From the NCBI GenBank assembly GCA_001800605.1, contig MGVS01000118.1, forward strand, positions 3,047 through 67,046: a DNA stretch of 64,000 nt, written 5' to 3'. The translations under genes and the position numbers were made by a program. The notes under the pieces are model-generated. The model did no database searches and was not told the origin of the DNA. It saw nothing but the letters and a program-made list of their open reading frames with translations. This stretch comes from Elusimicrobia bacterium RIFOXYD2_FULL_34_15 (GTDB lineage Bacteria > Elusimicrobiota > UBA8919). Positions within the stretch are counted from its first letter, which is position 1, and the number at the start of each line of letters is the position of its first letter. Shown piece after piece: positions 1 to 25,135 of the stretch.

Positions 1-3000
1 GCCTTTCATCGGATTGATGACGGTTTCTTTAGGATGTATCTCAGCATCTACTCCCACACCTACAACCGAAATTGTACTTATGGTTACATTACTGTTGAAT
101 GTTTTAAATGTACTTTCGGCTTGTGATTTTTGACCTGCGGTATCAGTAAGCACCGCTTTTATTTTATGTGAGCCATTTGTATATTTAGTAGTATCTAAAT
201 CCCAGCTCTGCCAACAATAAACTTCTCCTTCACCGGTTAGATGTAAATAATCGCCTACTCCGCCGATTTTATGTAAAATTCCGTCGACTCTATTCATGGT
301 TTTTTTCAACGAACCGTCTATATAAATTTGTAACTTACTGATTCCCTTATCATCTTCTACATAACAAACAATCCGTTTTATTCCGCTTACATTGGTTTCT
401 CCGTTATATGGAGACGATATATTTATTTTCGGTGGATTGTCAACTGTAGGAATTGAAATTGTCGTTCCGCTTGCAACATTGGATAAACCGGAAGTGTTAG
501 ATGCTTCATCCAATACTTTCATTGCAAAATAATACTGTGTATTGGCTGATAATCCGTTTATTGTCATTGTCTCTGCACTACCGGCTGTTCTCGGTGTTGG
601 TTCACCTGTTACCTGTGTTGCACTTGCAAAGTTTGCTTCGGTTATTTGTGTGATAGCGTATCTTATATCATAACTTGATGCTATTCCGGTATTACCATCA
701 TCACCTACCGAAGTCCAGCTAAGCTTCATTGAAGTTGCTGTTGCATTGCTGGTTGCAAGATTATTCACTGTTGCCGGTGCTGTAACATCTGATGCTGGTG
801 GAACGTATAATGTCTTAGTAACTACTACATTTGATACATTTGACCAATTTGGTACTTCATCCGCTACTTTCATTGCAAAATAATATGTAGAACTTGCTGA
901 CAGTCCATTTATTATTATACTCTGTGCGCTGCCGGATACTTGCGGTGCCGGTTCACCTGTTACCTGCGTTGCAGATGCAAAATTGCTTCCGGTTATTGGT
1001 GTATTCGCATATCTAATGTCGTATATAGTTGCAGTTCCTGTTATACCATCATCATCACCTGTTGCTGTCCAGTTAAGTGTTATTGAATTGACATTTATAT
1101 TACTCACTGCAAGATCATTCACCGCAGAAGGCGGTGTTGTGTCAGCCGAAGGTGTCGAAGGAAGTGTCGTTGCACTTGGACTATTGGAAACATTACTCCA
1201 ATTAACTACTTCATCTCCAACTTTTATAGCAAAGTAATAAAGTGTGTTTGCATTAAGTCCGTTAACAGTAAGTGCTTCTGCTCCACCTGCTGCTTTAGGT
1301 GCCGGTTCGTCGGTTACTTGTGTTGCGCTTGTAAAATTGCTGCTCGTTATCGGCGTTCCTGCCATGTACCTTACATCGTAACTTGTTGCTGTTCCGGTTG
1401 CACCATCATCACCTGTTGCTGTCCAGCTAAGTGTTATTGAATTAACAGTCGAATTACCCGCCGCAAGCGTGTTTATTGTTGCTGGTGCTATGGTGTCAGG
1501 TGCCGGTGGTGTTACATTGTTTACGGTTACCGATATTTGTGAATTTGTGGTTTGTGCTATTGTGTCAGTTGCTACTGCCTTTATTGTGTGTGCTCCGTTT
1601 ATATAGCCCGTTGTGTCTAAGCTATATGTATATGGAGATGTTGTATCTGTGTTCTTTAACACATCATCTACATAAAACACTACTGAACTAACACCGTTAT
1701 CATCGCTCGCAGTTGCCGTTATTGTTACACTGGCAGATACTGTTGCATTGTTTGCTGGTGCTGATATCGCAACTGTCGGTGGATTGTCAACAGATGGTAA
1801 TGCACTGGTTCTACCACTTGCTACATTTGAAAGTGAACTTGTGTTAGGTACTTCATCTGCAACTTTTATGGCAATGTAATACACCGTATCCGAAGTAAGT
1901 CCGTTTATTGTCATACTCTGTGCGCTGCCTGCTGCACTTGGTGACAGTTCGCCGGTTATCTGTGTTGCTGATGCCCAGTTGCTGCTTGTTATCGGCGTTC
2001 CCGCCATGTATCTTATATCATAACTTGTTGCGGTACCTGTTGTGCCATCATCCCCAACCGATGTCCAAGTCAATGTAATTGATGATGCAGTTATGTTGAA
2101 GGTTGAAAGATTACTTACTGTTGCAGGTGCCGTTGTATCAGCTGAAGGCGGTGCCGGTAATGTAGTTGCACTTGGACTATTGGAAACATTACTCCAATTT
2201 ACTACTTCGTCTCCTATTTTCATCGCAAAATAATAAAGTGTATTTGAATTAAGTCCATTAACTATAAGTGTTTCTGAACCACCACTTGCAATAGGTATTG
2301 GCTCGCCTATTACTTGTGTTGCACTCGCAAAGTTACCGCTAGTTATCGGTGTACCTGCTATATACCTTACATCATAAATTACTGCAGTACCAGTTGTTCC
2401 ATCATCACCAACTGCTGTCCAATTAAGTGTTATTGAGTTAACAGTCGGATTATTCATTACTAATGTGTTTACTTGAGCTGGTGGTGTTGTATCAATTGCT
2501 GGCGGCACCGTAGGTAATGTTTTACTACTTGCAACATTAGATAAAGTTGACCAATTTGGAACTTCATCCGCTACTTTCATTGCAAAATAATATGTCGTGT
2601 CTGCCGTTAGATTGCTTACTGTCAGTGTTTGTTGTGTGCCTGCTATTTGTGGCGTTGGTACTCCTGTTACAGGTGTTGCACTCGCAAAGTTACCGCTAGT
2701 TATAGATGTACCTGCTAGGTACCGTATGTCATAACTTGTCGCTGTGCCCGTTGTGCCGTCATCACCTACTGCTGTCCATGTTAACGTTATCGATGTTTGT
2801 GTTGGATTACTAGCTGCAAAAGTGTTTATTTGTGCCGGCGCAGTGGTGTCGGCTACAGCCGGTATATAGTGACTTAATACTTCAGCATCCGTTAATGCGC
2901 GGTTGTATATTTTTACTTCGTCTATTATTCCGCTAAATCTACCGGCACCCGATGGCTGTCTACCTATATTTAATGTTGTTGTGTTGGTGTCTATACTTCC

Positions 3001-6000
3001 CGTTGTTGCGGTTTGGTTTACTAATACTCCATCTTGATATAACTTTAGCGTTGCGCCGTCATATGTTCCTACAAGATGATGCCATACATTGACGTCTGCT
3101 GATGTCCATGTCTTTTCTACCGAGCTTGCTATTCCGCCTTTGAATATTTTAAAGTATGCCTTGTCACTCGCTCCTATTAAATATGCTCCTTTGTCTAGTA
3201 CTCTGCGTGTTGAACCATCTTGACTTATGTCTCCGCATTTTACCCATGCTTCTACACTTATTCCGGTTGTTAAATCTAAAATGTTACTGTCGGCTACGCT
3301 TACATATGTATTCAATCCGTCGAATTGTAACGATTTTCCTATTTTCCCATCTACCCAGGCAGGACTGCCGGTTAATGTTCCGGTATTACTATTCCCGGAA
3401 CTGTCGCTTGCACTGCTTCCGGTGCCTTCATCAAAATGCCATTCTGCCACTGTGCCGGCTTGTGATAATGTCCTGCCGCTGGCTATATTACTTATCGGAC
3501 TCCAATTCGGTATTTCATCGCCTGCTTTTATTGCAAAGTAATATTGCGTGTTTTCTGTTAATCCATTTATTACCATTGTTTCTGCGCCACCGTTTACTTT
3601 TGGCGCCGGTTCACCGGTTACAGGTGTTGCACTACCCCAGTTCGCATCGGTTATTTGCGTGTTGGAATATCTGATATCATAACTGGTCGCCGTGCCTGTT
3701 GTGCCATCATCTCCGACTGCGGTCCAACTTAATGTTATTGCTGTCTGCGTTGCACTGCCGGCACTAAGTGTGATTTGCGCAGGAGCTATTGCATCTGCAG
3801 GCGGTGCCGGTGTTGTGCCGCTTACTACATTGGATATTCCACTTTGATTAGCACCTTCATCAACTGCCTTTATTGCAAAATAATATTGCGTGTTACCATT
3901 TAAATTACTCACTGTCATCGTTTCACTGCCGCCGTTTGCTTTAGGTATCGGTGCTCCGCTTACAGCTATCGCACTTGCAAAGTTGCTGCTCGTTATCGGC
4001 GTTCCTGCCATGTACCTTACATCGTAACTTGTTGCTGTTCCCGTTGTTCCGTCGTCGCCGACTGCACTCCAATTTAATACTACACTGTTATATGTTATTG
4101 TTCCAGTTGCTAAGTCGTTTATTGCTGTCGGTGGAGTCGTATCTGAAGCACCAACAGTTATTTTTATTGTGTAGTCATTTAATCCGCTTACCGCTATTTT
4201 TACTATTACATCACCGGGCGTGGTCGTTGACCTTAACGTTGCTGTTGCTAAACCGTTACTGATACTCACTGTTGTCGCAGTTGTAAATTGTCCGCTGCCA
4301 CCTCCGCTGGTTATGCTAAATACCGCACTGCCGCTGTAATTTGTTTTCCTGCCCATCCTGTCTCTTATCTCTGCCGTGATTACACTTGTGCTGGTTCCAT
4401 TCGGCGGTAAACTTGCTACACTCGCACTGCCTTTTAGTTCTACACCGTTAAAAATACTTCCTAAATTTAATACCGCATTGCTTGCTGCCGAATTGTTTGT
4501 TGAATAACTTCCTTCAAATTTATCTATATTATTATATGTTTCTGTTATTGTATGATTAAGATTGGCACTCTTATTGTATAAACTGTATGCTTGTTTAGAG
4601 TTGGTTATCATGCTTGATACCTGGTCTACTAATATGTTTGTTGAATATCGTGGTGTTACTACTGTTACCGGTCTGGGTGCTATTGCCGCTATCACTTCAT
4701 TGAAGTCAAACGGCAGTCGGTTTTTGTTTGCATCATTCTGATATAAATCGTCATTTACAAAAAATCCCAACTTAGGTATTAAACCATGTAAGTGTGATAA
4801 TGCTCTAACCCCTTCTACTCCTAATGTAGCTGTACGAAGCGGTGTTACTCCGGCTAATGGTACAACTCCTGCAATCCTGTCATCATATAATGCCGACAAC
4901 AATGCTATTGCTCCGCCAGATACTCCATAACCACAGGTATATATCTGCTGTTTATTTATCGCTCCGCTTCTCGGATTTTGTGCTGAATCTAATAATGCTG
5001 TTATTATATATTGTACATCTTCTATGTTTTTGCCCATCGCTGTCCAATTTGGAAATCTCGAATAAAAATTCTGACCTTCTTCTATTCGTATTCCGGTCCA
5101 CATTACGTCATATCCTAGTACCGCTACCTTTTTGTTTATTACCATTTCTTCTAAGTATGGCCACATGAGTTCTCTGGTTGTACCGTTTGGAGAAAATCCA
5201 TTTGTATGTGAAGTGTTATTTATGAATATCACTGTTGAATATGTACTTCTGTCTGTCGGATAACATAGATAAGCATTAAGTATTTTACTTCCTGATGAGT
5301 TCTTTACAAGTATATTTTGCCGCCCTAAGGTCCCATATGCTATCGGTTTATAATTTTCCGAAGTACTTGTAATTCCATCGTGTGCACCGCCAAAATTGGT
5401 ATTGGAAGATGTAAAGCTACTATTAGCTGGACCGGTTCCTAATAACGCTGATATCTGCTGCTTTAATAATGTTTTCTTTTGTTCCCATTCTGATGTTGTC
5501 GTTATTGTTGCATTACTGCTGTTCTTTAATAAGTCGCTCATATCTGCCGGATGTGTTGCATAGTTTGCAGGATTAATTGTGTCATTCGGATGTGCTGCTT
5601 TCCAGCTATCAAATGTATAATTGAATCTAAATAAGTTTACGTATATGTCTGTAGGTAATGTTGTTGTTCTACCCCATGCCCAATTTAAAAATTGACAATA
5701 TGCATAAATCGCTGTAGAATCTATGTGATGTCCGCCCCAGTCCATTCTTACTCCTATTTTATTTGGTATCCCTAATAAATCAAACACTTTTTTTGCTGAC
5801 CGATATGATTGTTGTATACCCCATGGTCCTCCTAAAATATCATTTACTGCGGTTCCTAATATTACTGCTCTCGGTGCACAGATCGCAGCTAATGTGTTCT
5901 CATCTACCGGTAGTTTGTTCTCTCTGCCATGGAAATCAAAAAAACCTGTCGAATTCCCATCTATTAATCCACCAACATAGGTGTTTGGTCCGTATACTTC

Positions 6001-6726
6001 GGTATTATATTCATTAGTACTATATCTGAAAGGATTCTCACCACCAACTCCACCCATATTCGGCGCTCCGCCAGTAATTTCTTCAAAAAATGCTGCTGAC
6101 CATAATGCTACTTTCCCTGCTCTTGAGTGACCACAGGTTGCTATGTATCTGCTGTCTACCCAGCTTTGATTCTTTAGCCATTTAGCTACAGCACCTACCA
6201 CAAATGCACGACGCATTAAACCGCCCCAGCTATACCCGGGAAATGCGCTGGCTATATTACTCATGTTATCATCACCTATACTATTTACAACAACTCCTAC
6301 ATAGCCCATACTGGTTGCAGCATACACATCGTCCATCCAATTCCATGTTCCGATAAGTACAGGATATTTATTACCGCTAGTATAACTTGGATAACTGAAA
6401 GATAGACTTATTCCTACACCACCAACACTTATTGTTGTTGAACCAGTTCCCCACCCTACTGTTCCACTCATGCTTGGTAAGGATGGAAATGTCCCTGTAA
6501 TGCATGTTTTAAGTAAACCTACTAAATAATTCCTTTGTGTATTCCACTCGGACGAACTTGTAATCCTTGTACCGTCCGATTTCATTAATGGATCAGGTAA
6601 TAATCCAATTGACGGAAGGTTCTGTACATACGATCTTGGACTCGTTGTAAATGCTTGTAAATTATTAATTGGGTTAAGAATTATACTTATGATTGTTATT
6701 AGTGTTAAAAATATTTTTCTTGGCAT
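1..6726 (-). CDS. Giant secreted multidomain protein, 3' end cut by the window edge (>2,242 aa). Order: signal peptide, CE15-like esterase domain, second alpha/beta-hydrolase domain, Big-like Ig domain, 8 FN3-like repeats interrupted by a LamG domain and an Ig-like domain, then a further Ig-like domain.
   Basis: Missing from the ORF track (no stop inside the window). My minus-strand translation from ATG 6726 (GGAGG at 6734-6738) stays open to position 1 in frame (6726 = 3 x 2242). Motifs: MPRKIFLTLITIISIILNP; LPDPLMKSDGTRITSSSEW; CGHSRAGKVALW (G-x-S-R-x-G-K, CE15-type nucleophile, nt ~6120-6145); GYGVSGG (nt ~4905-4935); LamG-like WHHLVGTYDGATLKLYQDG...IDEVKIYNRALT (nt ~2870-3500); eight W[TS]A[VT]GDDGTTGTATSYD[IV]RY...YYFA[IM]K units. 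Confidence 0.85.
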   Translation of the reverse strand, partial: MPRKIFLTLITIISIILNPINNLQAFTTSPRSYVQNLPSIGLLPDPLMKSDGTRITSSSEWNTQRNYLVGLLKTCITGTFPSLPSMSGTVGWGTGSTTISVGGVGISLSFSYPSYTSGNKYPVLIGTWNWMDDVYAATSMGYVGVVVNSIGDDNMSNIASAFPGYSWGGLMRRAFVVGAVAKWLKNQSWVDSRYIATCGHSRAGKVALWSAAFFEEITGGAPNMGGVGGENPFRYSTNEYNTEVYGPNTYVGGLIDGNSTGFFDFHGRENKLPVDENTLAAICAPRAVILGTAVNDILGGPWGIQQSYRSAKKVFDLLGIPNKIGVRMDWGGHHIDSTAIYAYCQFLNWAWGRTTTLPTDIYVNLFRFNYTFDSWKAAHPNDTINPANYATHPADMSDLLKNSSNATITTTSEWEQKKTLLKQQISALLGTGPANSSFTSSNTNFGGAHDGITSTSENYKPIAYGTLGRQNILVKNSSGSKILNAYLCYPTDRSTYSTVIFINNTSHTNGFSPNGTTRELMWPYLEEMVINKKVAVLGYDVMWTGIRIEEGQNFYSRFPNWTAMGKNIEDVQYIITALLDSAQNPRSGAINKQQIYTCGYGVSGGAIALLSALYDDRIAGVVPLAGVTPLRTATLGVEGVRALSHLHGLIPKLGFFVNDDLYQNDANKNRLPFDFNEVIAAIAPRPVTVVTPRYSTNILVDQVSSMITNSKQAYSLYNKSANLNHTITETYNNIDKFEGSYSTNNSAASNAVLNLGSIFNGVELKGSASVASLPPNGTSTSVITAEIRDRMGRKTNYSGSAVFSITSGGGSGQFTTATTVSISNGLATATLRSTTTPGDVIVKIAVSGLNDYTIKITVGASDTTPPTAINDLATGTITYNSVVLNWSAVGDDGTTGTATSYDVRYMAGTPITSSNFASAIAVSGAPIPKANGGSETMTVSNLNGNTQYYFAIKAVDEGANQSGISNVVSGTTPAPPADAIAPAQITLSAGSATQTAITLSWTAVGDDGTTGTATSYDIRYSNTQITDANWGSATPVTGEPAPKVNGGAETMVINGLTENTQYYFAIKAGDEIPNWSPISNIASGRTLSQAGTVAEWHFDEGTGSSASDSSGNSNTGTLTGSPAWVDGKIGKSLQFDGLNTYVSVADSNILDLTTGISVEAWVKCGDISQDGSTRRVLDKGAYLIGASDKAYFKIFKGGIASSVEKTWTSADVNVWHHLVGTYDGATLKLYQDGVLVNQTATTGSIDTNTTTLNIGRQPSGAGRFSGIIDEVKIYNRALTDAEVLSHYIPAVADTTAPAQINTFAASNPTQTSITLTWTAVGDDGTTGTATSYDIRYLAGTSITSGNFASATPVTGVPTPQIAGTQQTLTVSNLTADTTYYFAMKVADEVPNWSTLSNVASSKTLPTVPPAIDTTPPAQVNTLVMNNPTVNSITLNWTAVGDDGTTGTAVIYDVRYIAGTPITSGNFASATQVIGEPIPIASGGSETLIVNGLNSNTLYYFAMKIGDEVVNWSNVSNSPSATTLPAPPSADTTAPATVSNLSTFNITASSITLTWTSVGDDGTTGTATSYDIRYMAGTPITSSNWASATQITGELSPSAAGSAQSMTINGLTSDTVYYIAIKVADEVPNTSSLSNVASGRTSALPSVDNPPTVAISAPANNATVSASVTITATASDDNGVSSVVFYVDDVLKNTDTTSPYTYSLDTTGYINGAHTIKAVATDTIAQTTNSQISVTVNNVTPPAPDTIAPATINTLAAGNSTVNSITLSWTATGDDGATGTATSYDVRYMAGTPITSSNFTSATQVTDEPAPKAAGGAEALTVNGLNANTLYYFAIKVGDEVVNWSNVSNSPSATTLPSTPSADTTPPSAVNDLAVSNINVNSITLNWTATGDDDGITGTATIYDIRYANTPITGSNFASATQVTGEPAPQVSGSAQSIIINGLSASSTYYFAMKVADEVPNWSNVSNVVVTKTLYVPPASDVTAPATVNNLATSNATATSMKLSWTSVGDDGNTGIASSYDIRYAITQITEANFASATQVTGEPTPRTAGSAETMTINGLSANTQYYFAMKVLDEASNTSGLSNVASGTTISIPTVDNPPKINISSPYNGETNVSGIKRIVCYVEDDKGISKLQIYIDGSLKKTMNRVDGILHKIGGVGDYLHLTGEGEVYCWQSWDLDTTKYTNGSHKIKAVLTDTAGQKSQAESTFKTFNSNVTISTISVVGVGVDAEIHPKETVINPMKG
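520..4090 (-). repeat. Eight tandem FN3-like coding repeats, period ~351-356 nt, interrupted by a LamG module (~2870-3500) and an Ig module (~1500-1790).
   Basis: The antisense signature tt[ct]at[ta]gcaaa[ag]taata (= YYFA[IM]K) recurs near 528, 878, 1230, 1872, 2226, 2582, 3533 and 3878. The plus-strand shadow ORFs ending ...SSP[TIA]FIAK reflect the same periodicity. Confidence 0.85.
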
Positions 6727-6740
6727 GTTTTTTCCTCCCT

Positions 6741-7439
6741 TTAAAGAATTGTAAACGGTATCTTCATTTTTTTAATTGTAGTTTTTTCTTTTTCCTGCAA
6801 TACCGCTTTTGCCTGCCAGTTACCTTGCTGTACTCCCTTAACGTAAACAGCAATTACATTTTCACCTCCGTCAAGGTTACCATGCCATATTATTTCTTTT
6901 TGTTCCATATCTACTTGTCCGTTTTTAAATGCTCTTACTCCGTTAGTTAATTCTATTTTTAATGTAACATTTTCCATTTTTTCTTCTGCTTTTATATTTA
7001 ATCTTATTACGCCCTGTTCATTTATGTTCATTACATTGAATGCCGATGCTTGCATAAGGATGTTATATTTTTTTGCCGTTAAAAAATTATAAACTATTGT
7101 AGTTACCGCAACTAATAAAAGACAAACTGCGGCTGCTGCAAATTTGAATTTCGGAAATACAAAATAACCCTTCAGCAATTCTTTATGGCGCATTTCCTGG
7201 TTTACTTTAACCATTTTTTGGTGTAATTCGCTTTCATAACCGGCAGGTAGTGCCTGGATTTGATATGATTTTAAGGATTCCATCATTTCTTTAACTAAAA
7301 CTAATTCTTTGGCACAACTTTCGCAGCTATCTATATGTTTCTTAATATATTTCATTTTTCTTTCTTCAAGGTTTCCTGTAAAATAAAGAAAAAGCTTCTT
7401 CTCCACGTCTCTGCAAACCATTTTTTTGATTATTTTCAT
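6741..7439 (-). CDS. Membrane-anchored anti-sigma factor: ZAS/zf-HC2 N-terminal domain, one TM helix, ~110-aa extracytoplasmic beta-rich domain.
   Basis: H-x3-C-x2-C motif in KKHIDSCESC. TM segment FKFAAAAVCLLLVAVTTIVYNFL. GGAGG at 7446-7450. Its stop lies 14 nt before the giant gene's start. Confidence 0.75.
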   Translation of the reverse strand: MKIIKKMVCRDVEKKLFLYFTGNLEERKMKYIKKHIDSCESCAKELVLVKEMMESLKSYQIQALPAGYESELHQKMVKVNQEMRHKELLKGYFVFPKFKFAAAAVCLLLVAVTTIVYNFLTAKKYNILMQASAFNVMNINEQGVIRLNIKAEEKMENVTLKIELTNGVRAFKNGQVDMEQKEIIWHGNLDGGENVIAVYVKGVQQGNWQAKAVLQEKEKTTIKKMKIPFTIL

Positions 7440-7459
7440 TTCATACCTCCACTCTACAT

Positions 7460-7486
7460 GACAACTTAAGCATTTAAATTGTTCCA
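7460..7486 (-). promoter_or_regulatory. ECF-type promoter candidate P1 (TGGAAC-N17-TGTC) upstream of the membrane anti-sigma gene.
   Basis: Minus-strand read: TGGAACAATTTAAATGCTTAAGTTGTC. It is followed about 10 nt later by GGAGG and the ATG at 7439. Confidence 0.55.
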
Positions 7487-7573
7487 GAAAATCAATTAAA
7501 AATTTAAAAACTTGTCTCGTTCTACGGGATTAAAAATTCAAAATTGTGGTTTTTATTATTTTATCTGTAAACT

Positions 7574-7771
7574 CTATCCCGCTATCACACTATCATGCTT
7601 TTCTTCCATCGCACTATACATTTGATACCAAAGTTCTGCACAATTATCGCAATGATTAACATGATCCAAAACAGATTCCATTTCATTTAATGTAAGTTTC
7701 TTTTCAAAAAAAGGATTTATGTTTTTCTGTACATTCTCACATACTGTTTTCTTTATATTAAATTCTGCCAT
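7574..7771 (-). CDS. Small soluble ZAS-type anti-sigma-domain protein (65 aa, no TM helix).
   Basis: LDHVNHCDNC fits H-x3-C-x2-C. I moved the start from the track's TTG at 7804 to ATG 7771, which is preceded by AGAGGTG; the upstream extension would overlap promoter P2. Confidence 0.6.
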   Translation of the reverse strand: MAEFNIKKTVCENVQKNINPFFEKKLTLNEMESVLDHVNHCDNCAELWYQMYSAMEEKHDSVIAG

Positions 7772-7794
7772 AATTATCACCTCTTGCATATAAT

Positions 7795-7821
7795 GACAAC
7801 ACAAACACTTAAATTGTTCCC
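7795..7821 (-). promoter_or_regulatory. ECF-type promoter candidate P2 upstream of the small ZAS gene.
   Basis: Minus-strand read: GGGAACAATTTAAGTGTTTGTGTTGTC, the same architecture as P1 and P3. Confidence 0.55.
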
Positions 7822-8015
7822 AAAATTCAATTAAAAATTAAAAATGCAAAATTGTGGTTTTTATTATTTTATCTATGCCTGCCCGCCTACGGTTTCTTGT
7901 CCAGCGTAGCTTTCTCGTTCTTCGAAGCTTTAGCGAAGGAGAAAGCGAAGTTGGAAGTGGCGGGAACTATGAACTACAAACCATGAACTTTCTGCCTCTC
8001 TACCTCTCTACCCTA

Positions 8016-8579
8016 TTACCTTCCGAAATTATAGATTTTCAATTTTTCTTTAAGCATGTTTCTACCGCGGTTAAGACGTGACTTTATAGTACCTATAGAA
8101 CACTTTGTTATCACTGCTATCTCATTATATGTAAACCCCTGAATATCATACATTACTACTGTAATACTATATTCCGGCGGTATTTTTGATAATGCATTTT
8201 TTATTTGTTTTTTCATATATGATTTTTCTACTTCATCTAAAGGATTACTATTGTCACTTAAATAATATGATACTGAATCTATCGAATCGGTGAGAGGTAC
8301 TTTTTTTTTGTATGATTTTTTACATTCATTCAAAAATGTGTTATGGACTATTCTCCATAACCAGCCGGAAAAAGAACTTTCACCTCTGAATGATTTTAGT
8401 TCTCTATATATTTTTATTAGAACTTCCTGGGATATGTCGCGGGCATCAGGTTCATTACCTGATAACTGGAGGGCAATATTGAAGATTTTCAATTGATAGT
8501 TGGAAATCAGCTGCTCGAAAGCAGTGACATCGCCGCTGACTGCTTTTTCTATTAGAATATTTTCTTCCATTAGTACCAT
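8016..8579 (-). CDS. ECF (sigma-70 family, group 4) RNA polymerase sigma factor.
   Basis: Region 2: FEQLISNYQLKIFNIALQLSGNEPDARDISQEVLIKIYR...WLWRIVHN. Region 4 HTH: FTYNEIAVITKCSIGTIKSRLNRGR. ATG at 8579, with an alternative at 8570. Confidence 0.9.
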   Translation of the reverse strand: MVLMEENILIEKAVSGDVTAFEQLISNYQLKIFNIALQLSGNEPDARDISQEVLIKIYRELKSFRGESSFSGWLWRIVHNTFLNECKKSYKKKVPLTDSIDSVSYYLSDNSNPLDEVEKSYMKKQIKNALSKIPPEYSITVVMYDIQGFTYNEIAVITKCSIGTIKSRLNRGRNMLKEKLKIYNFGR

Positions 8580-8609
8580 GTTCTAATTTTTTCCAGCTTC
8601 AACTATTAA

Positions 8610-8636
8610 GACAAACTAAACCTTATAAATGTTCCA
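8610..8636 (-). promoter_or_regulatory. ECF-type promoter candidate P3 upstream of the sigma gene (possible autoregulation).
   Basis: Minus-strand read: TGGAACATTTATAAGGTTTAGTTTGTC. Confidence 0.55.
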
Positions 8637-8784
8637 AGAAAAAAACAATTAAAAATTAAAAATGTAAAATTGTGGTATTTTATTATTTTGTTTTAAAGAC
8701 TTTACCTTTTCCTCCAATGACTTAGTGGCGGGCTACCTCTTTACCCGTTACTCATTACCCATTACTCGTTACTAGTTATATCAT

Positions 8785-11954: not shown

Positions 11955-12116
11955 AGATAGGATACAGGATACAGTACACAGTATACAGCTTATGAAAGGC
12001 AGTACACAGGATAACAGCTCACAGGATTCAGCTCTATAAATTATGATAAACTGTATTCTGTATTCTGTGCTCTGAGTACTGCATTTTCACTGTATCCTGT
12101 ATCCTGAGTACTGACT
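11955..12116. repeat. ~150-nt composite long-hairpin element (GGATACAG / CTGTATCC arms), copy 1. Its internal site is empty.
   Basis: It fills the nadK-recN spacer. It is homologous to 27283-27436 (opposite orientation) and 45173-45291 (same orientation). Confidence 0.8.
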
Positions 12117-12121
12117 TTAAA

Positions 12122-19011: not shown

Positions 19012-19932
19012 TTAGAACTTTGCATTTAAAGAAATTCTGTTATTACTGCTTAAATCGGTGTGTGAAATAAATGCATAATCAAGCTGGTAAGATTTCCAGC
19101 CAATTCCGAAACCTGCTGTAATCTGACTTAAATATGTTTTAAATCCTGCTCGGGGTATAAATGAAAATTTATCAGTGATAATCCAATTATATTCAGCACC
19201 TAAATTAACCGAAGGTGTAGAAAAATTGGTTAATGTTCTTAAATCTGTTGCTACCGTTAAATGTTTGAAATATGCATCTTTTACTGATAAACCCAAATCA
19301 AGTATTTTTCCCACTGCGACAGATTCATCAACATACTTTAAACTTCCGCCTATGTTTGATATTGCTAAACCCATATCCATTTTTTCCCAAAAAGGACATA
19401 CTCGCTGGAAACCTAAATCCACACCGAATCCCGATGCACTTTCGGTATCCAGATCTGAACTGATAAATTTCAATGTGATTCCGGCGTCTATATCATAATA
19501 TGTTTTCCTGCCATAACTTAATCCAACCGCTAAATCTCCGATACTAGCATTAGAATCCGGTTCTTCGGTATCGCCCGCTCTTTTTTCATATGTCGTAGAT
19601 AAATATGTGACGCTGATGCCTGCCGTACCTTTATTATCACTTAATGGATGAACATACGACGCATATTCGTGGCTTACATCCTCGTACCAGAATGTATGGG
19701 CCAGTAACGCTTGTTTTTGTGTCACCTTACTCAAACCTGCAGGATTCCAATATAATGAATATACATCATCGGCAACCGATGCAAATGCTTCGCCCATTCC
19801 GGCCGGACGCGCACCTGCACCTATTCTCAAAAATTCACCAGTCGTTGTTCCTGCATTTTCACTAATACTTACGGCGTTTGCAAAAGTAACAATTGTCAAA
19901 ATAATCACGGCTAAATAAAACACTTTCTTCAT
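19012..19932 (-). CDS. PorV/PorQ-like outer-membrane beta-barrel protein.
   Basis: Signal peptide MKKVFYLAVIILTIVTFANA. FLRIGAGARPAGMGEAFASVADDVYSLYWNPAGL. C-terminal ...ISLNAKF. Start moved to ATG 19932 (GGAGGC upstream). Confidence 0.65.
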   Translation of the reverse strand: MKKVFYLAVIILTIVTFANAVSISENAGTTTGEFLRIGAGARPAGMGEAFASVADDVYSLYWNPAGLSKVTQKQALLAHTFWYEDVSHEYASYVHPLSDNKGTAGISVTYLSTTYEKRAGDTEEPDSNASIGDLAVGLSYGRKTYYDIDAGITLKFISSDLDTESASGFGVDLGFQRVCPFWEKMDMGLAISNIGGSLKYVDESVAVGKILDLGLSVKDAYFKHLTVATDLRTLTNFSTPSVNLGAEYNWIITDKFSFIPRAGFKTYLSQITAGFGIGWKSYQLDYAFISHTDLSSNNRISLNAKF

Positions 19933-19968
19933 AAAAGCCTCCATTTTAAATATTATTTCATTCAAGGA

Positions 19969-22596
19969 CTAATATACCATTACTATTTTATTTTTTACTG
20001 TTTTATTCTTAGTTTCAGCTATAATGATATACACACCCGGGGCGCACAATTCGCCTTTTTGGTTTTTACCATCCCACTCAAGCGTATATGAAAATCCGCC
20101 TACCACATTATCATAGGAATTTTCTAATACAAGATCACCGGAAAGTGAATAAATCTTTAATTTCAAATCTTTTGTTTCCTGTGTCAAACTTAATTTTATA
20201 GTTGTATTCCCGCTTTTTTTCGGATTAAACGGATTAGGATAATTATATAGTTTTATATCTGTTCCGGAATATGCAGTGTATGTTGTAGTTGAAGTAGTTG
20301 TGCCTGTCGTAAAAGTAATATCAAATAATCCACATCCGCTGGTTGCCATAACTGAACCCCTGAACAGCCATGATACCGCCGTAGGCAAAAGTGCCACTGG
20401 TTTTAAAGGTGTCGCTCCCAAATCACTACTCATATAAATATAACCGGCATTCGTTCCATTATAAATTAAACCATCAAATATAAATGTTAGATCACTATAT
20501 AATCTATTCCCAGAACTTCTTGCAGGTAATCTTTTAGTAGCTAATTGTAATTTACCTTCATCTGTTGGAACTTCTGTTTTATTGTCACTTGGCTTCGGTG
20601 GTTCTTGATCCATATAAGTTAAATCTTCCCAGGTAACACCGCTATCCAGAGATATCGCGCATCCACCGCCAGTTTTTGAAGTATCTGTTGTAACTGTATG
20701 AACATATTGATAACCTACAATTAGATGCTCAGGTTTTGTAGGGTCTATAGAAATATTGGATATCCTAGTATCTGAAAATCCTATATTAGTCCAGGTTGAG
20801 CCGCCGTCAGTCGTCTTATACAAACCATCGCCATGTCCGGTAAAATTTCCGCCGTATTGGTTTTCGTCGCCACAAGCAACATACATCACACTTGGATTTG
20901 TAGTTGCCATTGCAATATAATAGATACCGTGATTTACGGGGAGTGATGTAATTTTATTCCAATTTGTTCCTGCATTTGTAGTTTTATACAAATAATTATC
21001 GGTAGTTGAAACAGCCGAAGAATTTGCAATACCTATATACATAATATTAGTATTTGTAGGATCAATAATTAGGTTAGTAGGAAATTGTGTCATAAAATTG
21101 TAGTTATATGGTGCTGCTGAAAAATCAACGAGTGTATTTGCAAAATTATCGGTGCCATTATCATTAGTATAATAAATCTTTAGATTAGCCATTAAGTAAA
21201 CTTTAGTTGCGCTATCCGGGGCAAAAGCCAGATACCTTACAAAGTCGGCACTCCCGCCTTTTTGAGGATAAACGCGCGACCAGCTGTCACCGTTATCATG
21301 GGAATAAAAGATATTATGATCCGCTAAAACATATAACCTGTTAGTACTTTTATCCTTTATCCCGTTCCTTATGTTTGGAGTAGTTATTCCTCTTTGTATT
21401 TGGAAATCATTAGAAGTAGTTGTACCAAGAGCGGTACTTGTAGTATAAAAAAAAGCCATCTCACTTTCTGCAACTCCCCAGTGACTGCCATCGGCATATC
21501 TAGAATCTACAACAATATCGTTAATAAACGAATTAATTTTTTCACGGTCTAATGCATCCGGAAGTGTTATATTATACCAGGAATTTGCCGGAAATCCGCC
21601 GGCAGCATCTGTACTTCTGCAAATTGAAGCGGAGGGTTGTGTACCGGTATTCGCATAAGCAAGCATCGAAGGTGGCGTTGTATCAGAATATAATATACCA
21701 ACGGGCCGATGACAACCGGCGGTTGTCCATAAAGGTACCGAAGACACCCTTACACCCCAGCTTGCACCGTCTGCACTACTATAAATATCGCCTTTACAGG
21801 TGATCATCCAAATTTTATTATTAGTACTATCCCAAGTCAATTGGTATGCAGGTTCTGTAAACGATGATGCTTGAGTAAAAGATACTCCGCTATTGGTACT
21901 ATAATAAACTTTTCCGGTTGTGGGATTATCTGCATTATCTCGGTTGAAACTTAAAAATTCATCTACAACACTTACAATTATTCTTCCGGCATTTGCACCG
22001 GAAGGTATTTGCAATACATCCGTTATACTTTCTGCACTGGTTACTGTTAATCCGGCTTCGGCCCATGTTAAACCGCCGTCCGTGCTCATATTTAAAACCG
22101 AAGCTTTGGCGTCTAAATCTTTGGTGCCGGTTTGGATAGCGGCAAAAAAATAATCACTATTATATAGTGATGATGTTACTATCGCGGCTCTTTTCCACAT
22201 TTCATTGGTTGCGCCGAGTGAAATACATGTCCAATTCTCTCCGCCGTCCGTACTTCGCCATAATGGCGACCATCCTTCATCTGCAACTAAAACAAGATTT
22301 GCATTTGATGAACTAACCGCTACTGAACCGGTATGGTGATTACCATATATAGTTGTCGTGCTCGCTGCTACAAAAGAATCACTTGGCTGCACGGAAGTCT
22401 TTCTTATCCATGTTTGTCCGCCGTCAGTACTTTTATACAGCCCGTAGCTTACCGCGTAAAAAGTACCCGGAGCACTGGGCGCTTCAACTATACGCCTTAC
22501 CCAGCCGCCGTCGATACTTTTAGGAACATACTCGGTAACAGAAAAAATTAATGATGGAACGACCAATAGTCCAATAAGAAATAATAGTTTTTTCAT
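19969..22596 (-). CDS. Secreted BNR/Asp-box beta-propeller protein with a FlgD-Ig / T9SS-type C-terminal domain.
   Basis: Asp-boxes STDGGQTW, STDGGENW, STDGGLTW, SHDNGDSW, TTNAGTNW, TTDGGSTW, SLDSGVTW. CTD NYPNPFNP...EWDGKNQKGELCAPGVY...KIVMVY. Start moved to ATG 22596 (GGAGGGAAAG upstream). Confidence 0.75.
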   Translation of the reverse strand: MKKLLFLIGLLVVPSLIFSVTEYVPKSIDGGWVRRIVEAPSAPGTFYAVSYGLYKSTDGGQTWIRKTSVQPSDSFVAASTTTIYGNHHTGSVAVSSSNANLVLVADEGWSPLWRSTDGGENWTCISLGATNEMWKRAAIVTSSLYNSDYFFAAIQTGTKDLDAKASVLNMSTDGGLTWAEAGLTVTSAESITDVLQIPSGANAGRIIVSVVDEFLSFNRDNADNPTTGKVYYSTNSGVSFTQASSFTEPAYQLTWDSTNNKIWMITCKGDIYSSADGASWGVRVSSVPLWTTAGCHRPVGILYSDTTPPSMLAYANTGTQPSASICRSTDAAGGFPANSWYNITLPDALDREKINSFINDIVVDSRYADGSHWGVAESEMAFFYTTSTALGTTTSNDFQIQRGITTPNIRNGIKDKSTNRLYVLADHNIFYSHDNGDSWSRVYPQKGGSADFVRYLAFAPDSATKVYLMANLKIYYTNDNGTDNFANTLVDFSAAPYNYNFMTQFPTNLIIDPTNTNIMYIGIANSSAVSTTDNYLYKTTNAGTNWNKITSLPVNHGIYYIAMATTNPSVMYVACGDENQYGGNFTGHGDGLYKTTDGGSTWTNIGFSDTRISNISIDPTKPEHLIVGYQYVHTVTTDTSKTGGGCAISLDSGVTWEDLTYMDQEPPKPSDNKTEVPTDEGKLQLATKRLPARSSGNRLYSDLTFIFDGLIYNGTNAGYIYMSSDLGATPLKPVALLPTAVSWLFRGSVMATSGCGLFDITFTTGTTTSTTTYTAYSGTDIKLYNYPNPFNPKKSGNTTIKLSLTQETKDLKLKIYSLSGDLVLENSYDNVVGGFSYTLEWDGKNQKGELCAPGVYIIIAETKNKTVKNKIVMVY

Positions 22597-22641
22597 CTTT
22601 CCCTCCGCATATCGCCTCGCCAACGGTTCAATGGCGGGCAA

Positions 22642-22738
22642 GTAGCGCCCTGCCTGCCGTCAGGCAGGCTCGCCAACGTTTTCTTGTCCGCCAAATTCGC
22701 CAGCTGGCGAATCAGTGGCGGAAGTGGCGGGCATCTTA
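22642..22738. repeat. Composite intergenic element between the two BNR paralogs.
   Basis: A 34-nt block (22642-22675, containing the hairpin cctgcctg-ccgt-caggcagg) and a 35-nt block (22724-22758) are identical to 25147-25180 and 25189-25223. About 48 nt of extra CCGCC/GGCGG modules lie between the blocks here. Confidence 0.85.
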
Positions 22739-25135
22739 TTATCTAACCAATACTATTTTATTTTTCACTTTCTCACCGTCGGCATCCGCAACCACAAAAT
22801 ATACTCCCGGAGCACACAGCTCGCCTTTCTGGTTTTTGCCGTCCCATTCAAACGTATACGAATTTCCGCCGGCATAGTTGTAATATCTATCCTCAGTTAT
22901 AAGGTCACCCGACATACTGTATATTTTCAATGTCAGTTTTTCTGCGGTTTCCCTCAAACCAAATTTTATCACTGTTTTTCCGTTTTTGGGATTGAACGGA
23001 TTGGGGTAATTATATAATGTGAAACTAGCGGAACCGGTGTATGTTGTTACTCCTGTCCAGTTAAGTCTGTAAATTCCTTTATTAGCACCTGAATACATCG
23101 AACCGACTATAAGGCACCTTATAGTGCCCAAATCAGTGCTGGTTGCCACCTGCTGAAAGGATACCGAAGGGTCAACCGTTGCATATACACCTTCCGAAGA
23201 AGCCAAATAGTATACGCCATCCGACCATTTAATATCTAAAGCATTGGGCGTCGAAGACATATTATAAACATAAACCTTACTCCAAGTTACTCCACTATCT
23301 TTGGAATAAAATGTAGCTCCATTGTAATGATAAGTTGAGGTATCAGTTCTGTCATGACAACTTGCCATAATAATTCCATCCGAAGAAACGGTTATTTTAT
23401 AAGGTAAATAGTCGGCAAGACCTATTTGGCTCCATGTCGGCGGATTAGTACCATCATCTATTATTTTCCATATTCCGCCATATGTCCAATTTGAAGAATA
23501 CATAGGAGAATTACCTAACCCGGCATAAATGATTGTAGGATTGGTTGGATCAATTGCCAATGTTTGAACGGCATTATCCGAGGTTAACCCTAGCTGCGTC
23601 CAAGTTGTGCTGGAACCGTAATTAGTTGTCTTATATATTGTCGCAGATGTTGCAGACATCGGTTTTTTTAATGAAAAATATCCTATTGCAGGATTTGTTT
23701 TATTAAATACTAAAGCTGAAAATGAAAGTTCATCGCCGGTAGTAACAGACGTAGAATAAACCATGTTCCATGTTATTCCGGTATCCGTACTTCGGTATAA
23801 ATCTCCGGCAGAACCCACAAAAACATTATTCACTTCAGGAGCAGCCACCGCACCGCCCATACTAAACTTGTGATGTTTATTTGTTGAACTATAAGACCGT
23901 TCCAAATCCGGACTAAAAACTCTTTTCCATACCGTACCGTTTACCGTGCCTTTATAAACACACATTGAACTCAAGACATATATATCGCCGTTGGGATCTT
24001 TACAGCCGGCATTTGCAACTAAACCCGCAAGACCGCTGTTTGCCGCTTTCCAGCTAAATCCGGTATCGGTGCTTTTCATTATACCGTCATCATTGCCGAG
24101 CCCGACACTGTTATTTCCGACCATATACATAGTATTTGGATTTGCCGGATCTATCAGCACATATCCGCCAAGAACATAACTGTTTGAATCTATAAGAACA
24201 GCATCATTCCAGCCGGTAGTAGACGATGTAATTATTGCAAAACCGTCCATTTTTGTCATATATATTTTTGTACCGTCAGGAGAAACGGTTATCTTGTCCT
24301 GACCTGTGACTTTTTTAAAACTAGCCCCCGCATTAGTACTAATATGAACGCCTTTGTCATTCCCATATTGCAGAGTTGATACTGCAAGTGTATTTGATGA
24401 AGTAGCCAGATATCTTGGGGCAGCGGTAAGAGTAAGAACCGTATTCCATGTATCGCCGCCATTTGAACTTTTCTTTATCCAGCCGTTAAACTCGCTCTCC
24501 CACTGAGGACCGGTATTCCCTGAACTAATCGCCTTATCCCCTATTGAGACATAAACATTATTATCTTTATCAACGCATAAATCCGACACGATTTTATTTC
24601 CGCTTGTAAATGCCGTTTTCGTCCAAGTCAAACCCGCGTCAATTGATTTATACACAACACCGTCAAGGTTTGTAAAATCCTGCCCTAATAAATAGAATGT
24701 ATCCGGAGCAGACGGTGAAGCAGCTATCTGTGTCACATTGACATTTTGCGAGGTAATTTCAGTACCTACCTTTGTCCATATTGTACCATAATCCACTGAA
24801 CGGTAAATATCGGTTGCAAAACTTCCAAAAGCGCCGCCGATTACAATATTAGGCGAAACAGGATGTACCGCTATTTTATCCAGACTATCATTCTGGGCAC
24901 CCAAACTTTTGATACTGCCTACAGCTGTCCATGTCGCAGCACCGTCTCTTGTAACAAATGTTCCCGAATACGTAGAACCGGCATATATTACTGTCGGACT
25001 GGACGGGCACATTGCAGCAACACTTATATCGCCGCCATAAACAGGCACTTTTGTAAAATTTGCAGCTAAAAGACAGGTAGATAGGTAAAGAGGTAAACAG
25101 ATAGATAGTAATAAAAAATAAAATGTTTTTTTCAT
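22739..25135 (-). CDS. Secreted BNR/Asp-box beta-propeller protein, a paralog of 19969-22596, with the same C-terminal domain.
   Basis: Asp-boxes TRDGAATW, SVDYGTIW, SIDAGLTW, SSNGGDTW, STDTGFSW, STDTGITW, SKDSGVTW. CTD NYPNPFNP...EWDGKNQKGELCAPGVY...KIVLVR. GGAGGAAAG before the ATG. Confidence 0.75.
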   Translation of the reverse strand: MKKTFYFLLLSICLPLYLSTCLLAANFTKVPVYGGDISVAAMCPSSPTVIYAGSTYSGTFVTRDGAATWTAVGSIKSLGAQNDSLDKIAVHPVSPNIVIGGAFGSFATDIYRSVDYGTIWTKVGTEITSQNVNVTQIAASPSAPDTFYLLGQDFTNLDGVVYKSIDAGLTWTKTAFTSGNKIVSDLCVDKDNNVYVSIGDKAISSGNTGPQWESEFNGWIKKSSNGGDTWNTVLTLTAAPRYLATSSNTLAVSTLQYGNDKGVHISTNAGASFKKVTGQDKITVSPDGTKIYMTKMDGFAIITSSTTGWNDAVLIDSNSYVLGGYVLIDPANPNTMYMVGNNSVGLGNDDGIMKSTDTGFSWKAANSGLAGLVANAGCKDPNGDIYVLSSMCVYKGTVNGTVWKRVFSPDLERSYSSTNKHHKFSMGGAVAAPEVNNVFVGSAGDLYRSTDTGITWNMVYSTSVTTGDELSFSALVFNKTNPAIGYFSLKKPMSATSATIYKTTNYGSSTTWTQLGLTSDNAVQTLAIDPTNPTIIYAGLGNSPMYSSNWTYGGIWKIIDDGTNPPTWSQIGLADYLPYKITVSSDGIIMASCHDRTDTSTYHYNGATFYSKDSGVTWSKVYVYNMSSTPNALDIKWSDGVYYLASSEGVYATVDPSVSFQQVATSTDLGTIRCLIVGSMYSGANKGIYRLNWTGVTTYTGSASFTLYNYPNPFNPKNGKTVIKFGLRETAEKLTLKIYSMSGDLITEDRYYNYAGGNSYTFEWDGKNQKGELCAPGVYFVVADADGEKVKNKIVLVR

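Follow-up and report, generated by a model that had tools for sequence, protein, structure and literature searches.

A putative ECF sigma/ZAS anti-sigma module with a recurring promoter motif and a probable truncated anti-sigma copy beside a large surface protein gene in an uncultured Elusimicrobia bacterium

The window, by which we mean the whole 64-kb stretch of DNA analysed here, stems from an uncultured groundwater Elusimicrobia bacterium and carries on its minus strand four genes that run in the order ECF sigma (8016..8579), a 65-aa ZAS-only ORF (7574..7771), a membrane ZAS anti-sigma (6741..7439) and a cargo gene (1..6726). Domain searches bear out the protein assignments of the original prediction, namely an ECF sigma, two ZAS-type proteins and an esterase/FN3 cargo, and the gene order and sizes it gave are correct as well. 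The sequencing runs that carry the locus contain DNA only and derive from groundwater and soil metagenomes, while the RNA runs searched for its sequence gave no match. An Rfam search of the window locus and three related loci returned no known RNA family.

Members of the ECF (group IV) family possess sigma regions 2 and 4 only, span about 170–220 aa and recognise promoters of the AAC(-35)/CGT(-10) type, usually including their own; the general architecture of such promoters is AAC/(C)GTC. The 187-aa sigma encoded in the window has this make-up, with Pfam matches to Sigma70_r2 (E 9e-14) and Sigma70_r4_2 (E 4e-12) only and a length within the family range, and it scores 99.8 bits against the NCBIfam model sigma70-ECF (TIGR02937; cut-off 42.9). 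The adjacent cognate anti-sigma gene that is expected of an ECF system is present in the form of the zf-HC2 membrane protein encoded downstream of sigma.

The membrane anti-sigma (232 aa) scores 24.8 bits against zf-HC2 (cut-off 22.2). The ZAS signature, H-x3-C-x2-C together with an upstream Cys or His, is provided by C9, H35, C39 and C42, all of which are invariant in the family. An AlphaFold2 model built from 7 sequences (mean pLDDT 74; a model from a 2-sequence alignment with pLDDT 44 was discarded) predicts helices at 2–21, 26–38, 40–57 and 68–93 that make up a four-helix N-terminal domain, and an Ig-like beta-sandwich at about 135–231 that forms the C-terminus; a transmembrane helix lies between them at about 99–122. 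Foldseek searches with the model returned complement MG domains, CARDB and RhoGDI, and the putative sensor domain matched no Pfam family at E < 0.03, carbohydrate-binding families included. The Ig-like domain is common to about 51 relatives and most of those listed share its length and position (14 sequences inspected). We regard the locus as defining a small, previously undescribed family of ZAS anti-sigmas with an Ig-like sensor domain, whose members in Elusimicrobia consistently accompany genes for sorting-domain cargo and PorV/PorQ-like proteins. Bacillus subtilis RsiW shares with the membrane anti-sigma the N-terminal H-x3-C-x2-C domain, the single transmembrane helix and the extracytoplasmic C-terminal domain; RsiW and its partner SigW are associated with an AAC-N16/17-CGT-type promoter, and RsiW is controlled by regulated intramembrane proteolysis. 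It differs from the protein described here in its C-terminal domain, which in the latter is the Ig-like sandwich of that small family of about 51 representatives.

The cargo gene starts 14 nt after the anti-sigma stop codon and runs off the window after 2,242 aa; in L001 it is complete, at 2,326 aa. Its N-terminus is signal-peptide-like and its Pfam domains comprise GCE_fung (E 8e-24), fn3, Laminin_G_3 and Big_7, with CE15 structures in the PDB matched at E 3e-20 to 1e-7. CE15 glucuronoyl esterases carry the nucleophile motif G-C-S-R-x-G, of which the cargo has the variant GHSRAG at 199–204, and the protein is CE15-like by sequence similarity. The C-terminal sorting domain TIGR04183 is recognised in the full-length L001 protein with a marginal score (23.2 bits against a cut-off of 23), such that the two marks of T9SS-type cargo, a signal peptide and a C-terminal sorting domain, are both found, the second only just above threshold; in the cargos of relatives FlgD_ig was recorded. 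The gene adjoining the cargo is PorV/PorQ-like (29.2 bits against a Pfam cut-off of 27 in L001), and the PorV-like gene of a relative scores 155 bits against 90 for NF033709.

Each of the three regulator genes is preceded on the minus strand by a 27-nt block, exactly as originally predicted. P3 (TGGAACA-N16-TGTC, 8610..8636), a putative autoregulatory promoter, stands 33 nt ahead of the ATG of sigma; P2 (GGGAACA-N16-TGTC, 7795..7821) stands 23 nt ahead of that of the small ZAS ORF; and P1 (TGGAACA-N16-TGTC, 7460..7486), a putative conserved internal promoter, 20 nt ahead of that of the membrane anti-sigma. The 64 kb contain exactly three copies of the shared core GGAAC-N17-TGTC, each of them 20–33 nt upstream of a regulator start codon, and the relaxed form GGAAC-N16-18-YGTC, searched on both strands of the window (128 kb), recovers only these same three sites. 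All three fall within 1.2 kb on one strand and have the identical N17 spacing. By chance 0.91 matches to the relaxed motif are expected in the whole window and at least three were reached in 8 of 100 shuffles; as the copies are related by duplication, however, the meaningful test is conservation in other species and not chance statistics. The three window copies have a common ancestry, and their similarity alone is no proof of function.

Orthologues of the sigma are found in three Elusimicrobia species (77, 55 and 51% identity), and the synteny of sigma and anti-sigma is conserved in all four species including that of the window; the order sigma, anti-sigma, sorting-domain cargo and PorV/PorQ-like gene is common to the three relatives. 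In every one of these (3/3) the anti-sigma gene is directly preceded by xxAAC-N16/17-CGTC, with sites orthologous to P1 that overlap the 3' end of sigma and lie about 20–45 nt before the anti-sigma ATG: TTGGAAC-N17-CGTC in the closest relative (L086:2855), and TAAAC-N16-CGTC (L203:1059) and TGAAC-N16-CGTC (L206:5936) in the two more distant species. Judged from this sequence comparison, the putative internal anti-sigma promoter of the P1 type is ancestral and present in all four species. The closest relative, whose sigma is 77–80% identical to that of the window, contains GGAAC-N17-CGTC in four places. One is the P3 orthologue TGGAACATATTTTGAGGTTAAGTCGTC (L086:2246-2272), 30 nt before its sigma ATG; the copy before the anti-sigma gene overlaps the sigma stop codon; another stands before a second cargo gene that is itself preceded by a remnant of an anti-sigma 3' end; and an orphan copy is followed by a remnant of a sigma start. 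The DNA flanking these copies bears no relation to its counterpart in the window. In the two more distant species the anti-sigmas are 46–49% identical, the same four-gene order is kept, and the motif is absent upstream of the sigma genes; autoregulation is therefore not universal in this sigma family. The original assignment of GGAAC-N17-(C/T)GTC to the locus sigma gains from the retention of the motif, without its flanks, at orthologous positions in three species, and GGAAC-N17-YGTC is a well-supported candidate for the promoter of this sigma.

Separate promoter copies before each of two anti-sigma paralogues had been singled out as a non-standard layout, but a promoter site of its own before the anti-sigma gene is found in all four species, appears to be ancestral and has a precedent in Escherichia coli, where the sigmaE-dependent promoter rseA P3 inside rpoE drives a separate anti-sigma transcript (PMC8595263). 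The rpoE-rseABC operon and the Elusimicrobia locus have in common an ECF sigma gene followed by a membrane anti-sigma gene, a sigma-dependent promoter before sigma and a second one within the sigma gene or at its end, both of these putative in our case. In contrast, RseA does not belong to the ZAS proteins, rseA P3 is placed 228 nt ahead of rseA, and the E. coli operon has neither a second anti-sigma paralogue nor a cargo gene fused to it.

Upstream of each promoter motif lies an AT-rich block made of repeated words: copy 3 (..AATAATAAAATACCACAATTTTACATTTTTAATTTTTAATTG) at 8646..8692, copy 2 at 7828..7874 and copy 1 at 7493..7566, all on the minus strand. The shared block of about 45 nt and the extra insert at P1 are thus real; the insert, which interrupts copy 1 at about 7505-7531, measures 27 nt and not 26. 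The notion that the block forms part of a promoter cassette did not survive comparison, since it is missing from the promoters of the relatives and is a widespread, generic intergenic repeat. A scan of metagenome contigs found it at 113 unrelated loci, none of which (0/113) has the promoter motif after it, and near-copies of 7488-7554 occur on other contigs in the same metagenomes. From their sequence distribution we take the AT-rich blocks to be generic intergenic repeat words and not promoter parts, and any definition of the regulon should rest on GGAAC-N17-YGTC only, the AT-rich half of the ‘cassette’ being unsuitable. The regulon was examined in the 64 kb and a few flanking stretches; the core holds about 27 bits of information, at which a metagenome-wide scan would be expected to yield thousands of chance matches. 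Neither a sigma54 nor a Bacteroidetes-type promoter could be read into the AT block by eye, the spacing and key bases being wrong for them.

The small ZAS-only ORF is 65 aa long when read from the ATG that is preceded, at 5 nt, by the Shine-Dalgarno sequence AGAGGTGA; gene callers start it at 71 aa. It has no transmembrane segment. Its score against Pfam zf-HC2 (E 9e-4, 19.8 bits) is under the 22.2-bit cut-off, and its only NCBIfam match is the RsrA model (E 0.004). Despite the sub-threshold score the ZAS signature is complete, with zinc ligands C11, H37, C41 and C44 in alignment columns that are invariant. A complete four-helix anti-sigma domain is not present, the ORF ending where the LPxGYxxELHxKL helix 4 of the family begins, and a 41-aa stretch of it shares 34% identity with the N-terminal part of the membrane anti-sigma. 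The gene is absent from all three relatives, which also have no counterpart of P2, and among 5.8 billion proteins no homologue was found apart from itself. It is known from one species, with at least 99.7% DNA identity across assemblies; metagenome contigs aligned to the region have no variant letters, and other contigs matched repeat words only.

P1 and P2 are 335 bp apart, and the units that they head align with 48/49 identical positions in the AT block (with the 27-nt insert set aside), 26/33 in the promoter and 112/195 in the coding DNA. Going by this alignment, P2 and the small ZAS gene look like a lineage-specific partial tandem duplication of the anti-sigma gene start. A segment of about 335 bp that took in the promoter and the start of the anti-sigma coding region would have given rise to P2 and the 65-aa ORF, the words of the AT-rich block being copied along with it; the ORF retains all four zinc ligands together with a good site for ribosome binding, but has neither helix 4 nor a membrane anchor nor the sensor domain. 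Streptomyces RsrA, which acts with SigR, is a small cytoplasmic ZAS protein encoded beside its sigma under a sigma-dependent promoter (PMC4960319), and the small ORF shares with it the ZAS motif, the sigma-adjacent gene and the putative sigma-dependent promoter. Unlike RsrA (about 105 aa), the small ORF has 65 aa, stops short of a fourth helix, is accompanied by a membrane ZAS paralogue that would act on the same sigma, and occurs in one species only. Cases in which a single ECF sigma is acted on by two or more anti-sigma paralogues are documented for RsiA1/RsiA2 in Sinorhizobium and for the multiple NepR proteins of Methylobacterium (PMC6180224, PMC4814048); those are NepR-type (class II) proteins of a partner-switch system and not ZAS proteins, and they are not truncated tandem copies with a promoter copy of their own.

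Taken as a whole, the locus is best explained as a canonical ECF sigma/class-I zinc-type (ZAS) anti-sigma module of an uncultured Elusimicrobia bacterium that would control a large surface or secreted CE15-type esterase with FN3, LamG, Ig and T9SS-type sorting domains, a reading to which we give a probability of about two-thirds. We infer that the promoters are active, that sigma could be bound by either ZAS protein and that an external signal acts through proteolysis. Free sigma would direct RNA polymerase to GGAAC-N17-YGTC promoters; P3 would provide positive autoregulation of the sigma gene, and P1, the old conserved internal promoter, would produce a second transcript encoding the membrane anti-sigma and the cargo. 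Output and negative feedback would in this way be made together, with the anti-sigma in excess over sigma. The membrane protein would hold sigma by means of its four-helix N-terminal domain until it is inactivated, presumably from outside and most likely by regulated proteolysis triggered through the Ig-like extracytoplasmic domain. The small ZAS protein, if functional, would be a soluble inhibitor that is induced by sigma and blind to the signal, and would thereby close a second loop of negative feedback. It had been proposed that the three promoters allow the products to be dosed independently, but all of them would answer to one sigma, and a search of the coding strand between the genes of the locus detected no terminator-like site; this makes it likely that nested transcripts add up, in the order sigma < small ZAS < anti-sigma/cargo. 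If the promoters are active, the locus represents a clean comparative example of ECF circuit rewiring, in which an internal anti-sigma promoter has long been kept and copies of ‘promoter plus gene start’ made by tandem duplication have become decaying remnants in the relative or a potentially functional truncated anti-sigma in the window. It also suggests that individual surface proteins of Elusimicrobia, to our knowledge a phylum with almost no experimental genetics, are expressed under sigma control.

The most credible alternative, which we nevertheless hold to be unlikely, is an ordinary two-promoter operon (P3 and P1) in which partial tandem duplication left P2 and the 65-aa ORF behind as sequence without a function, the peptide being unmade or non-binding and the segment decaying. 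The confinement of the gene to one species, its lack of homologues, its sub-threshold Pfam score and the loss of helix 4 all agree with this, as do the decayed promoter-plus-gene-start remnants at the locus of the closest relative, from which it follows that such duplications arise and decay often in the lineage. Set against it are the four retained zinc ligands, the strong Shine-Dalgarno sequence at the correct spacing, the intact -35 and -10 elements of P2, and a 65-codon frame that has stayed open in sequence of about 31–35% GC while the coding DNA diverged to 57% identity, an outcome for which we estimate a chance of roughly 0.5% under neutrality.

A bolder version of the regulatory reading, and one that we think distinctly improbable, treats the four-gene unit of Elusimicrobia as a cargo-dedicated, secretion-coupled, T9SS-like regulatory cassette outside Bacteroidota. 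The Ig-like domain would then monitor the cargo or the PorV-like shuttle and not an environmental chemical, and the window species would have added a newly born three-helix soluble ZAS buffer that is sigma-induced and signal-blind. Were this true, a new feedback loop would have been caught in the act of arising through a duplicated promoter and gene 5' end. An ECF sigma linked to T9SS gene expression is known from the PorXY-SigP system of Porphyromonas gingivalis (PMC4800418, PMC7712824); SigP differs in being activated via a two-component system and not through a cognate ZAS anti-sigma, in controlling machinery genes and not an adjacent cargo, and in belonging to another phylum.

Little probability attaches to the suggested link with sigmaI/RsgI, according to which sigma is set free once the polysaccharide on which the esterase acts has bound to the extracytoplasmic part of the anti-sigma. 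The CE15 glucuronoyl-esterase-like domain of the cargo and the conserved extracytoplasmic beta-sandwich of the anti-sigma speak for it, and a few weaker fold matches are carbohydrate-binding Wzt domains (ranks 28 and 50). However, the sigma is of the plain ECF type, a Pfam scan of the membrane anti-sigma found zf-HC2 only and no RsgI_N, and neither an extracellular carbohydrate-binding nor a glycoside-hydrolase module, as SigmaI/RsgI systems have, was recognised in it; the best fold matches of the sensor are generic Ig-like domains. Moreover, the same sensor domain is paired in the three relatives with cargos in which the esterase is missing and LamG, FN3 and Big_7 domains are found instead, so that sensor and enzyme do not go together.

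That the 27-nt and AT-rich blocks are a mere intergenic repeat module devoid of promoter function is scarcely credible, for while the intergenic regions of this repeat-rich genome are mosaics of repeated words and the AT-rich block is itself such a repeat, widespread in unrelated contigs, the GGAAC-N17-YGTC core is separable from it, missing from its other copies and from the rest of the window, conserved exactly in spacing and in its place ahead of the same genes in three species whose flanks differ, and in keeping with the general ECF architecture. Another repeat at the locus is a REP-like element (cccgccac...ggacaagaaaccgtaggcgggcaggca) on the minus strand at 7876..7964, within the spacer that separates sigma from the small ZAS gene. 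The RNA fold of this spacer is not above shuffled sequence in stability (z = +0.97) and terminator-like sites are absent from its minus strand; repeats of the same family recur in the window at 22663, 46014 and 60654.

At this locus a lineage-specific, truncated paralogue of the zinc-type anti-sigma (ZAS) protein, with a putative promoter of its own, has been added to an otherwise canonical ECF/ZAS operon whose putative internal promoter is conserved. Four genes follow one another on the minus strand: an ECF sigma factor (8016-8579, 187 aa), a small ZAS ORF (7574-7771; 65 aa if read from the ATG that follows a Shine-Dalgarno sequence, 71 aa according to gene finders), a membrane anti-sigma (6741-7439, 232 aa) and the cargo, a giant esterase/FN3 protein whose ATG lies at 6726, 14 nt past the anti-sigma stop codon, and whose gene leaves the window; on a longer contig (L001) it encodes 2,326 aa. 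The sigma factor comprises regions 2 and 4 only, which denotes the ECF type, and the zinc anti-sigma motif H-x3-C-x2-C is present in both downstream regulators. Against the Pfam zf-HC2 threshold the membrane protein passes and the 65-aa ORF falls slightly short; the four ligands of the latter (C11, H37, C41 and C44) stand in alignment columns that are invariant in the family. The module belongs to the ECF sigma/class-I ZAS anti-sigma kind.

An AlphaFold2 model of the membrane anti-sigma, built with seven homologues as input (mean pLDDT 74), predicts four N-terminal helices, a transmembrane helix (residues 99-122) and a C-terminal beta-sandwich (135-231). This sensor domain matched no Pfam family, and the top structural matches of the model are generic Ig-like folds including complement MG domains, CARDB and RhoGDI. 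An exhaustive profile search recovered about 51 relatives; most among those listed are about 200-250 aa long with the domain at the C-terminus, and the 14 sequences inspected mostly combine a ZAS motif, a transmembrane segment and the sensor domain. The sensor-domain proteins therefore constitute a small, real anti-sigma family.

Upstream of the three regulatory genes lie 27-nt blocks, exactly where the original prediction placed them: P3 before sigma (8610-8636), P2 before the small ZAS ORF (7795-7821) and P1 before the membrane anti-sigma (7460-7486). All are N17 and on the coding strand, 33, 23 and 20 nt before the respective start codons, and they are the only matches to GGAAC-N16-18-YGTC when the whole 64-kb window is searched on both strands (0.91 expected by chance in that length). 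The layout as a whole was correctly described, including the gene order, the three motif copies, the AT-rich block common to them and the additional insert that its P1 copy carries.

The motif recurs in other species. The window belongs to an uncultured member of the Elusimicrobia known from metagenomes of groundwater and soil. Its closest relative (UBA9627 and matching contigs; sigma 77-80% and anti-sigma 72% identical to the window) lacks the small ZAS gene in its locus and has a gap of just 34 nt between sigma and anti-sigma. It carries GGAAC-N17-CGTC before the sigma gene (L086:2247) and again at L086:2855, across the sigma stop codon and 20 nt ahead of the ATG of the anti-sigma. A third copy (L006:2950) precedes a second cargo gene, which has a vestigial anti-sigma C-terminus of 55 aa in front of it (L006:2950-3200), and a fourth, orphan copy (L086:8636) is followed by the truncated sigma start ATGGTAATGGAGTGA. 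Past these, the same region (L086:8636-8790) holds a further half-promoter, TTGGATATAAGTCGTC. Evidently, promoter-plus-gene-start segments have been duplicated and have decayed repeatedly in this lineage. The flanks of its motif copies, AT-rich block included, have nothing in common with those in the window. In two more distant species (anti-sigma 46-49%, sigma 51-55% identical; one record is annotated Elusimicrobia bacterium RIFOXYD2_FULL_34_15) the order is sigma, anti-sigma, a LamG/FN3/Big_7 cargo with a FlgD_ig-type tail and a PorV-like gene; TAAAC-N16-CGTC or TGAAC-N16-CGTC stands immediately 5' of the anti-sigma gene, and the ECF motif is found before sigma in neither. Because position and spacing are kept across four species while the surroundings change, the GGAAC-N17-YGTC-type motif is the putative promoter of the window's sigma factor, this conservation being the strongest available evidence, and the anti-sigma/cargo unit appears to be its most conserved target.

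The AT-rich block next to each promoter (7493-7566, 7828-7874 and 8646-8692) behaves differently. In a scan of metagenome contigs ACCACAATTTTNNATTTTTAAT, in fuller form ACCACAATTTTNNATTTTTAAT(TTTTAATTG), occurs at 113 loci of GC 0.18 to 0.65, many of them not Elusimicrobia-like, often directly 3' of a short hairpin that differs in sequence from contig to contig; GGAAC-N16-18-YGTC follows within 90 nt at none of the 113. Nor is there a consistent link between the 78 distinct copies and gene starts: 12 precede a start on their own strand, 19 adjoin the 3' end of an ORF on the other strand, and 22 are inside ORFs called by a simple ORF finder. The block is thus a generic repeat, which may be a repeated word, a DNA element with a structural role or a signal for processing, and since it occurs elsewhere without a promoter or a fixed relation to genes, the proposed cassette separates into a conserved ECF promoter core and an adjoining lineage-specific repeat word. 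The intergenic regions of the window are mosaics of such words, including the REP-like cccgccac...gtaggcgggcaggca (also cccgccac...ggcggacaagaaaccgtaggcgggcaggca), gtaacgagtaatgggtaa, gattacacagatta, AATTTTTAATTTTTAATTG and aggatacag words (families at 7876-7964, 22663-22689, 46014-40, 60654-80; 8734-8783, 30914, 48283; 12060-12119, 27404, 31986, 45267, 46069), and near-copies of the P1 block occur on other contigs of the same metagenomes. One 2.1-kb contig (L004) departs from the window at about 8738, with an efp gene upstream of the sigma promoter region in place of the divergent ComEC-like gene; the breakpoint sits within repeat words, and either the DNA has truly been rearranged or the assembly is chimeric.

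P1 and P2 lie 335 bp apart, and their units are identical at 48/49 positions in the AT block (27-nt insert set aside), 26/33 in the promoter, 15/23 in the 5' UTR and 112/195 in the coding part. The small ORF aligns to residues 1 to ~67 of the membrane anti-sigma (34% protein identity over 41 aa) and ends just short of the conserved helix 4 (LPxGYxxELHxKL). P2 and the small ZAS gene are most simply read as the product of a partial tandem duplication, restricted to the window lineage, that copied the internal promoter and the anti-sigma 5' end. Near-identical AT blocks beside diverged coding DNA point to recent copying or conversion of the repeat word, and not to selection on a promoter element. 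The sigma C-terminal ends also differ, ..KIYNFGR (8016-8030) in the window against ..KKIGTF (L086:2845-2870) in the relative, where the stop codon and the -35 element of the internal promoter overlap; ..TTCGGAAGGTAA.. at the sigma end in the window may be a vestige of that ancestral -35 element and, if so, would mark the entry point of the ~530-bp insertion with P2 and the small ZAS gene.

If made, the small ZAS protein would be a sigma-induced inhibitor in the cytoplasm, unable to receive an envelope signal. In favour of a function, its frame is open despite heavy divergence (at this base composition, an estimated neutral chance of ~0.5%), none of the four ligands has been lost, the Shine-Dalgarno sequence is good and the -35 and -10 elements of P2 are intact. 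The rival reading, a relic, is favoured by its occurrence in one species only, by the loss of helix 4 and by the decay of like promoter-plus-gene-start remnants in the closest relative's locus.

Free sigma would transcribe its own gene from P3, and the anti-sigma and cargo from P1, possibly on into the PorV-like gene, coupling output to negative feedback. No terminator-like hairpin with a T-run occurs on the coding strand between the genes and the predicted fold of the REP-like spacer does not surpass that of shuffled sequence, so the transcripts are probably nested and additive. 'Independent dosing' of the products is the wrong description because one sigma would serve all three putative promoters; more likely, read-through and the strength of each promoter set fixed ratios. 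Single-pass ZAS anti-sigmas usually release sigma upon proteolysis triggered at the extracytoplasmic domain, and the same presumably applies here. P1 would be a second transcription source for the anti-sigma, as is P3 of E. coli rseA, an internal sigma-dependent anti-sigma promoter (PMC8595263). Soluble anti-sigmas are reported in 10 ECF groups (PMC7826278) and a soluble example, RsrA, has been described (PMC4960319); paralogous anti-sigmas for one ECF sigma (PMC6180224, PMC4814048) and an ECF sigma factor linked to T9SS genes (PMC4800418) are already known.

The cargo begins with a signal peptide and includes a CE15 glucuronoyl-esterase-like domain (PDB matches to E 3e-20; variant nucleophile motif GHSRAG), numerous FN3, LamG and Ig domains and a marginal match to a T9SS type-A sorting domain; the next gene is PorV/PorQ-like. 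The suggested resemblance to sigmaI/RsgI sensing fails: the RsgI_N domain that defines those systems is absent from the window anti-sigma, which has no recognisable carbohydrate-binding module, and relatives pair the same sensor domain with non-esterase cargos. The original prediction is accordingly supported in part, for the promoter core and not for the AT-block cassette, independent dosing or this analogy. Most worth pursuing are the small Ig-domain ZAS anti-sigma family, which in Elusimicrobia goes together with sorting-domain cargo and PorV-like genes, and the possible role of the 65-aa protein as a regulator of recent origin.

A second cargo, cargo, PorV-like cluster lies on the minus strand at 19012-25135, without a sigma or anti-sigma gene or the GGAAC-N17-YGTC motif; it encodes an 890-aa and a 798-aa BNR/sortilin-like protein, both ending in a sorting domain of the FlgD_ig/CHU_C type, then a 317-aa PorV-like protein. 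Both distant species share a conserved sigma leader of ~200 nt (L203:250-490, L206:5130-5370) with a long-range inverted repeat (cccgttagaagaatagc ... attctaacggg) and no Rfam match, which may be a structured regulatory RNA. In one of them another GGAAC-N17-CGTC (L203:5265-5290), downstream of the PorV-like gene, stands ~180 nt upstream of a 190-aa gene that matches no Pfam family and is a candidate for a further regulon member in that species.
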